Assembly (NCBI RefSeq): GCF_002854065.1
Contig: NZ_CP024152.1
DNA from: Escherichia coli
GTDB taxonomy: Bacteria; Pseudomonadota; Gammaproteobacteria; Enterobacterales; Enterobacteriaceae
Reading direction: 5' to 3' (one strand)
Length of the DNA stretch: 64,000 bases
In this document: positions 26,855-54,093 of the stretch, piece after piece
How the letters are laid out: every line of letters begins with the position of its first letter
Position numbering within the stretch: the stretch's first letter is position 1
The notes under the pieces: model-generated
What the model saw: only the letters and a program-made list of their open reading frames with translations
What the model was told of the DNA's origin: nothing
The model's database searches: none
Program-made: the position numbers and the translations under genes

Positions 26855-27031
26855 ATGAATCTGGTAGACGCCTTTGTCAAAAAAGTAATATCCGGTCCAT
26901 ATGAAGAATATGGAAAATGGTGGATAGATGTTGAATACATTTCATGGGGTGTTCCCGGGAAAACAAGACTGATGTTTGAGTCAAAGGAGCAGGCACTGGA
27001 AGTTAAAGAAGGGTACAAATTTTTAACGTGA
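26855..27031 (+). CDS. Hypothetical small protein (58 aa)
   Basis: ATG at 26855 preceded by AAAAGGAAAA; followed by a hairpin at 27047-27077. Confidence 0.35.
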   Translation: MNLVDAFVKKVISGPYEEYGKWWIDVEYISWGVPGKTRLMFESKEQALEVKEGYKFLT

Positions 27032-27095
27032 GATCTCTTTTTGTTAAAGGGCAGGAAGCGGTAACTCCCTGCCCTTAGTTACGTTTCCAGGCTTA

Positions 27096-27203
27096 TCAGT
27101 CGACAAGTTCCCGGATCAGTTCCAGAACAGCAATCAGCGCGTTTGCAACGGCAACTACTGCCCTGAGAACGATGATTAACAGATTAATCATCCGCTTCTC
27201 CAT
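27096..27203 (-). CDS. Candidate type I toxin, DinQ/TisB-like hydrophobic peptide (35 aa, or 31 aa from the ATG at 27191)
   Basis: Manual translation of the minus strand gives MEKRMINLLIIVLRAVVAVANALIAVLELIRELVD; GGAG sits 6 nt before the internal ATG; single predicted TM helix with a charged C-terminus; not in the 60-aa ORF track. Confidence 0.4.
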   Translation of the reverse strand: MEKRMINLLIIVLRAVVAVANALIAVLELIRELVD

Positions 27204-27449
27204 CACTGGAGGAAATCACCGTTGCTTACTCTTACATTGCCTGTCACAACGGCACTTTCAGTGTTAGTTGAAAAGAGACTTCCTCCTGCCAGAGCACTGA
27301 ACACAGCACCACCTGTTTGTTCAGCCAGGACTTAAAATCTTGCATCCATAGTCCCGATGGATATCACGGCAGAAGTGTCGCCAGACAGAGCTAACCTGCG
27401 GATTATAAGGATGGTTGCTATCAAATGAACAGCTCGCTATTATAAGAAC

Positions 27450-27537
27450 GTTAGTTGAAAAGAGATTTCCTCCGGTCAGGGCCACCCACTCTGTAACGGA
27501 ACAGTAAAAAAACCGACCTCACCAGTCGGTTTTTTTA
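27450..27537 (+). ncRNA. Candidate antisense sRNA (putative antitoxin) for the 27096-27203 peptide gene
   Basis: Sigma70-like -35 TTGCTA (27415-27420) and -10 TATTAT (27438-27443); intrinsic terminator hairpin plus T7 at 27511-27536. The transcript carries GTTAGTTGAAAAGAGATTTCCTCC, a near-exact copy of 27262-27285, so it would be complementary to the opposite-strand mRNA leader. Confidence 0.3.
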
Positions 27538-27689
27538 CATCTGTTGTTTCTCAAAATCCGCCCAACATGCCCGTCACACCGGGGAAACTCATGCTCTGAA
27601 TCAGAACCAACCATCTCAACTTTGCCGTCTCCTGAAAAAACTGGCACATTCAGTTCGATAACTACCCATAAATACAGAGAGAAAATCCG

Positions 27690-27941
27690 ATGTCAGAAAA
27701 GTGGAGTAAAGAATTCGACTCTTGCTTTCAGGTGGGGAGCATAGAAGAAATTGCAGATGCTCTCGAGAAACGCAGCGGAAGCGAGGAAAATGCGTTAGCC
27801 ATGCTGGCAATGACAGCCTTCACACTCATGACCCGACGTGGTATCTGCGAAATGCAGAACGTGGCCCCCGATGGCAAAGGCATTCGGCTGGAGCTAATCG
27901 GCTTCAGGGAAAATGAAACAATACCGGATACGCTTCATTGA
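27690..27941 (+). CDS. Hypothetical protein (83 aa)
   Basis: ORF with a weak RBS; ends just before the bidirectional terminator at 27981-28003. Confidence 0.35.
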   Translation: MSEKWSKEFDSCFQVGSIEEIADALEKRSGSEENALAMLAMTAFTLMTRRGICEMQNVAPDGKGIRLELIGFRENETIPDTLH

Positions 27942-28012: not shown

Positions 28013-28165
28013 TTAACGTTTAACTTCGTAGGCTAACGTTGCCACAAGCACTGTGTTTCCCTGCTGGAGCCGGAGTCCGCAAAGCGAATCCCTCACCATC
28101 CAGACAAAACACAGAATCGTCACACAGATGACGATTAACATCATTAAAAACGTTCGCTGTGGCAT
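28013..28165 (-). CDS. pndA: PndA, Hok-family type I toxin (50 aa)
   Basis: Manual translation: MPQRTFLMMLIVICVTILCFVWMVRDSLCGLRLQQGNTVLVATLAYEVKR, with the Hok-family pattern of a TM helix followed by SLC and AYE. Below the ORF-track size cutoff. Confidence 0.8.
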   Translation of the reverse strand: MPQRTFLMMLIVICVTILCFVWMVRDSLCGLRLQQGNTVLVATLAYEVKR

Positions 28166-28223
28166 CATAGCCCCTCCATTGCCTTACGGCGGTTATCGGG
28201 CTACTATAATGTTGTCTAGGCAT
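28020..28223 (-). CDS. pndC: PndC, Mok-like overlapping reading frame enabling pndA translation
   Basis: Overlapping frame (ORF 28020-28358) with an ATG at 28223; hok/mok/sok architecture. Confidence 0.5.
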   Translation of the reverse strand: MPRQHYSSPITAVRQWRGYDATANVFNDVNRHLCDDSVFCLDGEGFALRTPAPAGKHSACGNVSLRS

Positions 28224-28280
28224 TACAGTAGAGCCCTTGGTTGATTGATAAAAAAATCTCCAGGGGCTTTCTGCTGTATA
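28217..28280 (+). ncRNA. pndB: PndB, Sok-like antisense RNA (approximate)
   Basis: Plus-strand -10 TATAAT at 28205-28210; the transcript would be antisense to the pndC start region; imperfect hairpin plus U-rich tail near 28230-28280. Confidence 0.4.
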
Positions 28281-28437
28281 TGGTTTAGTTAACAAAGAGA
28301 GCCAGTGTTCCACTGAGCAAAACCAGTAGCTATTCATGCTTACAATTATCTTCTCCATATCTGAAATAACTCAAACAGCCCAATAGAAACATATTGTTAC
28401 ATCTAAGATCTTGAAAAGACCTCTTTGAGAAATCAAT

Positions 28438-54077: not shown

Positions 54078-54093
54078 CTGTATATGCATACAG
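54078..54093 (+). promoter_or_regulatory. LexA (SOS) box at the impCAB promoter
   Basis: CTGTATATGCATACAG matches CTGT-N8-ACAG exactly and sits about 24 nt upstream of the impC start. Confidence 0.75.

Follow-up and report, generated by a model that had tools for sequence, protein, structure and literature searches.

The DqlB-AgrB module of the IncI1 plasmid R64, a probable plasmid branch of the Escherichia coli dinQ-agrB type I toxin-antitoxin family

The stretch of DNA analysed here (64,000 nt; the window) shows 100% identity to the IncI1 plasmid R64. In the RefSeq annotation the locus is flanked by excA and the Hok-family gene pnd, the position given in a preliminary description that had been made from the raw sequence; that description had recognised a real type I module and had its coordinates and architecture almost right. 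Kristiansen et al. (2016; PMC5066626) defined the dql family, and the DqlB-AgrB system of R64 is already known, being both named and annotated in RefSeq. One study reports dqlB on 67.4% of IncI1 plasmids (PMC12365149), and work of 2025 established that DqlB-AgrB acts as an addiction module on pOXA-48 (PMC12365149) and pOXA-484 (PMC12317039). A literature search on the R64 and IncI1 copies found no expression, toxicity or stability data, and what is said below of the R64 transcripts and their ends, of 5' processing, toxicity, rescue and a stability phenotype is read across from relatives. The features of the locus are collected in Table 1.

Table 1. Features of the dqlB-agrB locus (window positions).
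Feature	Position	Strand	Description and basis
dqlB mRNA terminator hairpin	27047..27076	-	inverted repeat I6
dqlB coding sequence	27096..27191	-	31 aa (MINLLIIVLRAVVAVANALIAVLELIRELVD) plus stop; NCBIfam, RefSeq WP_001303310.1
Shine-Dalgarno (SD) GGAG (element 4)	27198..27201	-	sequence; 6 nt upstream of ATG 27191
Anti-SD element (element 3), GAUUUCCUCCAG	27206..27217	-	CUCCA/UGGAG hairpin with the SD, or alternative pairing to element 2
AgrB target with element 2 (GGCAGGAGGAAGUCUC)	27263..27295	-	direct-repeat copy 1; mRNA about +101 to +133
Weak LexA-box-like sequence, ACCTGTTTGTTCAGCCAGGA	27311..27330		in the 5' UTR, about +66 to +85; function doubtful
Candidate element 1 (CGACACUUCUGC)	27369..27380	-	mRNA +16 to +27; position matches dinQ element 1, U16-C28
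dqlB promoter, -10 hexamer TATAAT	27402..27407	-	gapless alignment to the K-12 dinQ -10 (TATGAT)
Inferred dqlB primary transcript, about 350 nt	27040..27395	-	homology with the 331-nt +1 dinQ transcript (PMC5066626)
AgrB promoter, TTGCTA-17-TATTAT	27415..27443	+	promoter scan, 9/12 matches; aligns with K-12 agrA/agrB promoters
AgrB sRNA, about 89 nt	27450..27538	+	5' single-stranded arm, internal stem-loop, Rho-independent terminator
AgrB intrinsic terminator	27504..27538	+	14-bp stem then T-run; inverted repeat I2, 100% complementary

Homology of the peptide is established by family models. In the profile search against type I toxin families that had been proposed, the NCBIfam model NF041473 ("DinQ-like type I toxin DqlB") is matched at 66.3 bits (cut-off 35), profile positions 1-31 of 31 aligning with residues 6-36 of a 36-aa ORF, and the RefSeq CDS of the same name (gene dqlB) occupies exactly the interval 27096-27191 in R64. 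The 35-codon ORF noticed earlier (27096-27203) is present and would become one of 36 codons from a GTG at 27206; the GGAG at 27201-27198 lies 6 nt 5' of ATG 27191, as had been said. This ATG is the RefSeq choice and the conserved start. In alignments of related plasmids the upstream ATG/GTG is swapped for CTGGAG or ACGGAG, so the 35-aa form is probably not made, and the 31-aa form is, as judged from these alignments, the conserved product. The R64 peptide is 81% identical to pOXA-48 DqlB, and codon differences in dqlB, summed over six comparisons with relatives, are 40 synonymous versus 15 non-synonymous.

The peptide had been likened to DinQ and to TisB, and the first likeness stands while the second does not. 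Against DinQ, only the C-terminal 17 residues align (11/17 identical), and the DinQ equivalog NF041472 is matched below its cut-off (19.9 bits versus 30). No TisB family appears in the NCBIfam scan (E<=1) and no IstR in the Rfam search (E<=10), and membership of TisB/IstR-1 is rejected. Pfam yields no family match to the peptide, even at E<=10. Searching plasmids by tblastn with the 31-aa peptide retrieved nothing at E<=1e-3, an uninformative null that is probably due to the low-complexity filter and the short query; plasmid relatives were sought by a DNA-level search in its place.

Upstream of dqlB, the inferred transcription start is G27395, placed by gapless alignment with the K-12 dinQ +1 (GTTAGCTCTG). 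The -10 is kept as TATAAT or TATACT in all plasmid loci; the -35 is poor, and a generic promoter scan did not report the dqlB promoter. Both GGAG and its spacing are retained in all aligned loci, and in 9/9 loci the motif sits in the 3' arm of a predicted hairpin. At the other end, the terminator hairpin carries compensatory changes (R64 GGGCAGGGAG...CUUCCUGCCC versus K-12 GGGCUAAGAG...CUCUUAGCCC) and could also be used by a convergent plus-strand ORF at 26856-27031. The unit thus combines the traits of the dql family, namely a sigma-70 promoter (with its poor -35), a Rho-independent terminator and the SD spacing.

The leader contains the parts of the dinQ switch. Element 3 is homologous to dinQ element 3, U167-U178 (PMC5066626), and the AgrB target aligns with the agrB site of dinQ, G88-A119. 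Pairings 1:2, 2:3 and 3:4 are all predicted, with the SD held in hairpin 3:4; the energies are -7.0 kcal/mol for the SD hairpin (3:4) and -18.9 kcal/mol for the 2:3 duplex. In R64 the match to the 1:2 "lock" element is loose. With low confidence, candidate element 1 could lock the full-length transcript through element 2 or the SD region, the predicted duplex energies of the 5' 60 nt being -26.0 kcal/mol (element-2 region) and -19.0 kcal/mol (SD region).

The antitoxin RNA is encoded divergently, its -35 lying back-to-back with the dqlB -10. Its homology is likewise established: Rfam AgrB (RF02891) matches 27451-27538(+) over the full model (1-84) at 55.3 bits (gathering score 40, E=8e-8). Alignment to K-12 agrB points to a start at G27450, and nucleotides 1-21 are unpaired in the predicted fold. 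The sigma70-like promoter of the preliminary description was recovered at the same place by the promoter scan, and a terminator scan returned the intrinsic terminator of this plus-strand unit. The Rfam OrzO-P model gives a weak match, mostly in the terminator half (33.6 bits, far below its gathering score of 60), and no ZorO family is matched in NCBIfam; membership of ZorO/OrzO is rejected.

AgrB and the dqlB leader share a direct repeat, as had been noticed, although its extent is 33 nt at 88% identity (27263-27295 and 27450-27482), one base off the earlier placement, and the sRNA-leader pairing, correctly proposed, runs over 33 nt instead of about 24. Three of the four differences between the repeat copies become G-U pairs in the RNA duplex, so that the AgrB 5' arm and the dqlB 5' UTR pair through 29 Watson-Crick and 3 G-U pairs with 1 mismatch, a complementarity that is established for this locus. 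For the first 35 nt of the sRNA the duplex energy is -51.6 kcal/mol, about 10 sd beyond shuffled sequences (n=200; mean -24.3, sd 2.8, minimum -32.5 kcal/mol). AgrB also carries a near-copy of element 3 (inverted repeat I1). A further repeat in the region (D2, 27195-27218 and 28350-28373, 75% identity) was judged a chance match.

How would AgrB binding silence the toxin? In dinQ, element 2 acts as an anti-anti-SD whose partner is the anti-SD element or, alternatively, AgrB, a structural switch demonstrated by SHAPE and in vitro translation (PMC5066626). With the AgrB target blocked, the predicted probability that GGAG of R64 dqlB is unpaired falls to 0.00 for every 5' end tried, compared with 0.12-0.52 when it is unblocked. 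The minimum-free-energy folds of the free mRNA give no clean contrast between open and closed states, GGAG being mostly paired even without AgrB. Folds of 5'-truncated mRNAs, examined for an active species like dinQ "+44", revealed no clear open state, the highest P(unpaired SD) being 0.52, for a +80 end.

By analogy with these relatives, a minus-strand mRNA of roughly 350 nt would arise from the promoter with its consensus -10 and poor -35, and the 3' part of this mRNA would encode a 31-aa single-helix membrane toxin. The anti-SD element UUUCCUCC, upstream of GGAG, would close it in a short hairpin, and GGAG would open when this element pairs instead with GGAGGAAG, about 75 nt further upstream. 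The divergent, better promoter would yield AgrB, a roughly 89-nt RNA whose free 5' arm, with its UUUCCUCC-containing sequence, would pair over the 33 nt of the GGAGGAAG region. This would free the anti-SD element and shut the ribosome-binding site, and the duplex would probably also be an RNase III substrate. As long as the plasmid is present, AgrB would hold the toxin untranslated; once the plasmid is gone, the sRNA would presumably be shorter-lived than the mRNA, leaving the toxin to kill or arrest the cell (post-segregational killing).

The module is found well beyond R64. At the DNA level the region occurs at >=99% identity in 483 plasmid records, and AgrB adjoins a dqlB sequence in all eight related plasmid loci examined, which span the replicon types IncI-gamma/K1, IncK2/Z, IncFIB and IncHI2; the co-occurrence of the two is therefore established. 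The module is intact in six of these loci and decayed in two: one (L010) has lost the region between the two repeat copies and has a shortened ORF, and the other (L009) has lost the ORF beside an IS66 element. In the six intact loci each AgrB 5' arm fits its own target at 21-24 of 24 positions, compared with 11-20 for unrelated targets, which establishes the covariation of arm and target. Across the nine loci, elements 2 and 3 vary in concert, in three sequence classes. A cross-locus energy matrix for elements 2 and 3 gives -16.9 kcal/mol for cognate pairs versus -14.3 kcal/mol, weak evidence alone, the advantage being small because most loci share one class.

R64 groups in its arm/target class with the IncK2/Z locus (L004), the IncHI2 locus L008 with L007a, and L005 with L007b; K-12 and pOXA-48 each form a separate class. 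R64 AgrB pairs with the IncK2/Z target through 22 Watson-Crick and 2 G-U pairs of 24, and IncK2/Z AgrB fits the R64 target at 24/24. From the sequences, the classes look mutually orthogonal. One Shigella plasmid has two tandem modules of different classes, and some plasmids keep AgrB with the toxin lost or disabled.

The closest validated systems, those of the IncL plasmid pOXA-48 and the IncX3 plasmid pOXA-484, share the R64 layout of divergent genes in which the 5' arm of the sRNA repeats a segment of the toxin 5' UTR. The toxicity of pOXA-48 DqlB is countered by agrB, and the toxin is lethal to cells that have lost the plasmid (PMC12365149); a test plasmid becomes more stable when it carries the pOXA-484 module (PMC12317039). 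R64 and pOXA-48 have dqlB annotated in RefSeq and a common terminator loop (CCUCACCAG/AUCUCACCAG), and differ in arm length (33 nt in R64, 35 nt in pOXA-48), in the sRNA body, since R64 AgrB keeps the internal stem-loop whereas the shorter pOXA-48 AgrB has no Rfam match (E<=0.1), and in context (excA-pnd-trbA versus repA-trbC). Their arms are unrelated in sequence, which places them in different specificity classes.

The dinQ-agrB architecture proposed at the outset is borne out, the AgrB Rfam and DqlB NCBIfam thresholds being passed and the locus being colinear with K-12 dinQ from the -10/+1 to the terminator, through the agrB site, the GUGACAGGCA and GAGUAAGC blocks, the SD and the ORF. By sequence, the R64 locus is a true homologue of dinQ-agrB as a whole. 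The four-element leader logic, including the SD hairpin, is kept, AgrB has the same fold and terminator, and DinQ and the R64 peptide share an ALIAxLELIR core. In contrast, the R64 peptide (31 aa) has an N-terminal half unlike that of DinQ, the context is a plasmid and not a chromosome, and R64 has one agr gene compared with two in K-12; this gene lies at the position of the non-repressing agrA, yet pairs as well as agrB. The locus is thus very probably the DqlB-AgrB type I toxin-antitoxin module as carried by R64, and belongs to the branch of the E. coli dinQ-agrB family that is found on plasmids.

Several other readings bear on how, or whether, this module works. AgrB might occlude a ribosome standby site at GGAGGAAG, as IstR-1 does on tisB, in place of the SD-hairpin switch. 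The target does contain this SD-like stretch, about 75 nt 5' of the SD and single-stranded in some predicted folds, and the preliminary description had read it in that way; it is better read as element 2 of the dinQ switch (PMC5066626). The homologous dinQ works by closure of the SD hairpin upon agrB binding, as SHAPE and in vitro translation have shown; R64 retains all the pieces of the switch, with element 3 complementary both to element 2 and to the SD; AgrB mimics element 3; and elements 2, 3 and the AgrB arm covary across loci. Standby-site occlusion is accordingly quite improbable. That R64 bears a decayed, non-functional remnant kept by hitch-hiking only is very improbable: decayed relatives exist and the dqlB -35 of R64 is weak, but its ORF, SD, -10, target, AgrB promoter and body and both terminators are intact, the region is nearly identical among hundreds of plasmid records, and the ORF substitutions are mostly synonymous while arm and target covary. 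Short hydrophobic ORFs are common (66 ORFs of >=20 aa in 4 kb here), which would favour a chance ORF beside a chance repeat, with no gene at all. This idea is refuted, and has virtually no probability left, since the locus clears the thresholds of a curated protein family model and a curated RNA family model, shuffled sequences come nowhere near the repeat, and conservation spans replicon types.

A different question is whether the same module serves mainly as an SOS- or stress-inducible membrane toxin under LexA and not as an addiction module. Chromosomal dinQ is LexA-regulated (PMC3567139, PMC5066626), and the 20-mer at 27311-27330 is identical to one that a study of IncI1 pTF2 proposed as the LexA site of its dqlB (PMC12211044); the heterology index, 11.64, is below the usual limit of 15. 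However, the K-12 LexA box over the dinQ -10 (CTGTATGATTATCCAG) is replaced in R64 by CCTTATAATCCGCAG, with loss of the first half-site, and R64 thus lacks the promoter-overlapping box that marks DinQ proper. The pTF2-type site falls inside a conserved predicted RNA hairpin, at about +66 to +85 relative to the inferred start, and it has one mismatch to CTGT-N8-ACAG (CTG-N10-CAG), a kind of match expected about 22 times by chance in the 64,000-nt window. No rise in DqlB was seen in a LexA-defective strain, though DqlB was not detected at all in the proteome of IncI1 pTF2 (PMC12211044), and close relatives behave as addiction modules. There is little chance that SOS induction is the main role. 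LexA regulation is rejected on the grounds that the promoter box is absent and that the sole candidate lies in the UTR and does not exceed chance.

The DqlB-AgrB module of R64 can also be set beside other type I systems. In tisB-istR-1 and zorO-orzO, and by prediction in R64, the mRNA of a small hydrophobic toxin has a long, structured 5' UTR requiring processing, to which an sRNA transcribed divergently binds far upstream of the SD; tisB differs in its mechanism, standby-site occlusion, from the one supported for R64. R64 carries, 800 bp away, another type I addiction module with a small membrane toxin, pndCA/pndB of the hok/sok family. The two have no sequence relationship. The pnd antisense RNA is encoded in cis, overlapping the leader, and pnd translation is coupled via mok/pndC; the pnd locus matches Rfam sok and NCBIfam Hok, families different from those of dqlB-agrB, and the independence from pndCA claimed earlier therefore stands.

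As a discovery the locus adds little, the dql family being already represented in NCBIfam, in Rfam and in the R64 RefSeq record, and DqlB-AgrB having been demonstrated in 2025 to act as a major addiction system on carbapenemase plasmids. On R64 two type I modules that are unrelated to each other, dqlB-agrB and pnd, lie next to one another, and the share of dqlB-agrB in R64 stability could be small because pnd is already adjacent. Automated counts of antitoxins will be uneven because the Rfam AgrB model detects the IncI-type sRNA and misses the validated one of pOXA-48. It is conceivable, but in our judgement unlikely, that the arm classes mediate interactions between plasmids, a resident AgrB of the same class disarming the toxin of a competitor (anti-addiction); if so, arm diversification would be driven by escape from cross-neutralisation. 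The loss of the LexA box of the dinQ promoter on the plasmid fits a change from an SOS-induced toxin to a constitutive addiction module.

The locus between excA and pnd that the preliminary description proposed as a DinQ/TisB-like type I toxin with a trans-acting antisense sRNA is a known, annotated DqlB-AgrB system, correctly rediscovered there. Positions 27030-27560 of the window match the IncI1 plasmid R64 (NC_005014.1) at 100% identity and a further 483 plasmid records at 99% or more. The suggested profile search identifies the toxin, scoring the peptide at 66.3 bits (cut-off 35, residues 6-36) with NCBIfam NF041473, "DinQ-like type I toxin DqlB"; the NCBIfam DinQ model gives 19.9 bits, under its cut-off of 30, and Pfam holds no model for the peptide. 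AgrB and the sok of the adjoining pnd module are the only Rfam families at gathering score in the window. As far as sequence can tell, the locus has every feature of a DqlB-AgrB system; it does not qualify as DinQ proper, TisB or ZorO/OrzO.

Features of the dqlB-agrB module and the neighbouring pnd module, in window coordinates
Feature	Position	Strand	Details
dqlB ORF, long forms	27096-27203, or 27096-27206 from GTG	-	sequence
dqlB	27096-27191	-	RefSeq annotation in R64, WP_001303310.1
SD GGAG	27201-27198	-	6 nt before ATG at 27191
Element 3 (anti-SD), GAUUUCCUCCAG	27217-27206	-	
Direct repeat	27263-27295 (copy 1), 27450-27482 (copy 2)		33 nt, 88% identical
AgrB promoter TTGCTA-17-TATTAT	27415-27443	+	
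AgrB sRNA unit		+	Rfam RF02891 end-to-end, 55.3 bits, gathering score 40, E = 8e-8
AgrB terminator	27504-27538	+	14-bp stem
pnd module	28013-28380	-	adjoins dqlB-agrB
Hok-family ORF	28013-28168	-	51 aa; NCBIfam Hok matches under equivalog cut-offs
sok-family RNA	28163-28380	-	74.9 bits, 84-nt insertion vs model

The minus-strand ORF and its SD lie where they had been described. Of the two proposed products, 31 and 35 aa, the shorter holds: ATG 27191 and GGAG are invariant among aligned relatives, whereas the upstream ATG/GTG of the 35/36-codon ORF is replaced by CTGGAG or ACGGAG, and the product is therefore a 31-aa peptide. Codon differences in the ORF are 40 synonymous versus 15 non-synonymous (six comparisons, non-independent). 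By homology with dinQ, the R64 dqlB transcript would start at ~27395 and run ~350 nt to a hairpin at 27076-27047. The module is flanked by small conserved hypothetical ORFs of 58 aa (26856-27031, +) and 83 aa (27690-27941, +), neither with an NCBIfam match, and the 58-aa ORF converges on this same would-be dqlB terminator.

The plus-strand unit does begin with the second repeat copy and has both promoter and terminator, although the repeat is longer than first reported. AgrB nt 1-33 pairs with mRNA +101 to +133 through 29 Watson-Crick and 3 G-U pairs with 1 mismatch; of the four positions at which the DNA copies differ, three turn into wobble pairs in the RNA duplex. The AgrB-leader duplex reaches -51.6 kcal/mol versus a mean of -24.3 for shuffled arms (sd 2.8, minimum -32.5, n=200), and AgrB nt 1-21 are unpaired in the predicted fold. 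Only 7 nt separate the dqlB -10 (27407-27402, -) from the AgrB -35 (27415-27420, +); the upstream regions of the divergent promoters therefore overlap, and the two might compete for RNA polymerase. The same arrangement is found in K-12 dinQ/agrA. The 3' half of AgrB (27471-27536, +) weakly matches Rfam OrzO-P (33.6 bits vs gathering score 60) and shares its terminator loop CCUCACCAG with the OrzO consensus, a likeness that could reflect distant agr-orz kinship or a convergent terminator.

In dinQ, SHAPE and in vitro translation established that element 3 sequesters the SD; in the 5'-processed mRNA element 2 (anti-anti-SD) pairs with element 3 instead and so frees the SD, while AgrB on element 2 closes it again and also promotes RNase III cleavage (PMC5066626). 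The K-12 dinQ locus is colinear with the R64 minus strand: the alignment takes in the -10 hexamer (TATGAT vs TATAAT), the transcription start (GTTAGCTCTG), the block AAGTCCTGG...GGTGGTGC, the agrB site, the blocks GTGACAGGCA and GAGTAAGC, the anti-SD, SD and start codon, the LELIR-encoding core, and the terminator, whose stem shows compensatory changes. Anchoring the published numbering on the SD (G184-G187) recovers elements 1-4 and the agrB site G88-A119, element 1 being recognisable only loosely in R64. The R64 leader holds the same switch pieces, and its element 3 can pair with either the SD (CUCCA/UGGAG, predicted -7.0 kcal/mol) or element 2 (GGAGGAAGUC, predicted -18.9 kcal/mol); AgrB bears a near-copy of element 3 (inverted repeat I1). 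In fold predictions, which define no processed active species, blocking the AgrB site brings the probability of an unpaired GGAG to 0.00 at every 5' end tried, versus 0.12-0.52 unblocked. An SD hairpin is predicted in 9/9 loci, and elements 2 and 3 covary in three classes. Unlike the K-12 dinQ locus, R64 carries just one agr gene; it occupies the agrA position next to the toxin gene, the two promoters lying back to back, and nevertheless pairs as well as K-12 agrB.

Is dqlB under SOS control? In a study of the IncI1 plasmid pTF2, dqlB is named and assigned a putative LexA site with the same sequence as 27311-27330; the DqlB peptide was not detected there (PMC12211044). The LexA box over the K-12 dinQ -10 is not conserved in R64 (CCTTATAATCCGCAG). 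The sole box-like sequence at R64 dqlB lies in the UTR (+66 to +85), within a conserved predicted hairpin, and is not beyond chance, ~22 one-mismatch sites being expected per window. We infer that R64 dqlB transcription is constitutive, which fits an addiction role, though it may yet be under SOS control. Across the whole window CTGT-N8-ACAG with at most one mismatch occurs 46 times versus 22.3±4.9 (maximum 34) in dinucleotide-preserving shuffles, an excess that may stem simply from trinucleotide/codon bias (CTG/CAG), which shuffling at the dinucleotide level does not retain. At 54078-54093 lies a perfect LexA-box core, CTGTATATGCATACAG.

The dqlA/dqlB genes were defined on Enterobacteriaceae chromosomes and natural plasmids, with the same leader logic (Kristiansen et al., 2016; PMC5066626). 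On pOXA-48 (IncL) DqlB is toxic, agrB neutralises it and the system kills after plasmid loss; the same 2025 study finds dqlB on 67.4% of IncI1 plasmids (PMC12365149). DqlB-AgrB of pOXA-484 (IncX3) is likewise a toxin-antitoxin pair and stabilised a test plasmid (PMC12317039). R64 and pOXA-48 DqlB are 81% identical, and our literature search found no experiment on an IncI1 dqlB-agrB copy. The validated pOXA-48 AgrB (NC_019154.1, 3338-3420, minus strand) pairs with its own leader over ~35 nt (-54.7 kcal/mol) but goes unrecognised by the Rfam AgrB model even at E<=0.1; the IncL/M branch therefore escapes RF02891.

Eight related loci from IncI-gamma/K1, IncK2/Z, IncFIB and IncHI2 plasmids were compared. 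All eight carry AgrB above gathering score, divergent from the dqlB sequence; repeat and ORF are kept together in related plasmids, so that the refuting case named in the preliminary description, their separate fate, does not arise. Two IncK2/Z loci are altered. In L010 (NZ_CP141240.1, 1230-1510) the AgrB reverse complement is joined directly to the part of the dqlB leader that follows the target, with loss of the two promoters and of ~100 nt at the start of the leader; the module appears to have collapsed via recombination between the direct-repeat copies, and its ORF has a 12-nt deletion (annotated 27 aa). L009 (NZ_AP027160.1, 1140-1530) retains intact AgrB, dqlB promoter and leader, diverges shortly before the SD without a toxin ORF, adjoins an IS66-family element and looks like an antitoxin-only remnant. 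In the Klebsiella IncI-gamma/K1 locus L003 (NZ_CP129821.1, 1670-2382) the stretch from dqlB to pnd holds an additional sok-like element and three AgrB-like copies, which score 56, 46 and 37.7 bits. A good match to the dqlB target at this locus is seen for the first copy alone; the second is nearly identical to R64 AgrB.

The AgrB arms vary widely between loci, as in R64 (GTTAGTTGAAAAGAGA), L005 (GTCAGTTATAGACAGT), the IncHI2 locus L008 (GTTGGATGTAGAGTAT) and K-12 (GTTAGATAAGAACTCT). Among the six intact-module loci, 21-24 of 24 positions agree between an arm and its own target, versus 11-20 for unrelated targets. An IncI-gamma/K1 locus of Shigella sonnei, L007 (NZ_OP038271.1, 569-1754), holds two complete dqlB-agrB modules in tandem whose arms fall in different pairing classes, L007a with L008 and L007b with L005. 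Such distinct pairing classes may bear on plasmid-plasmid interactions.
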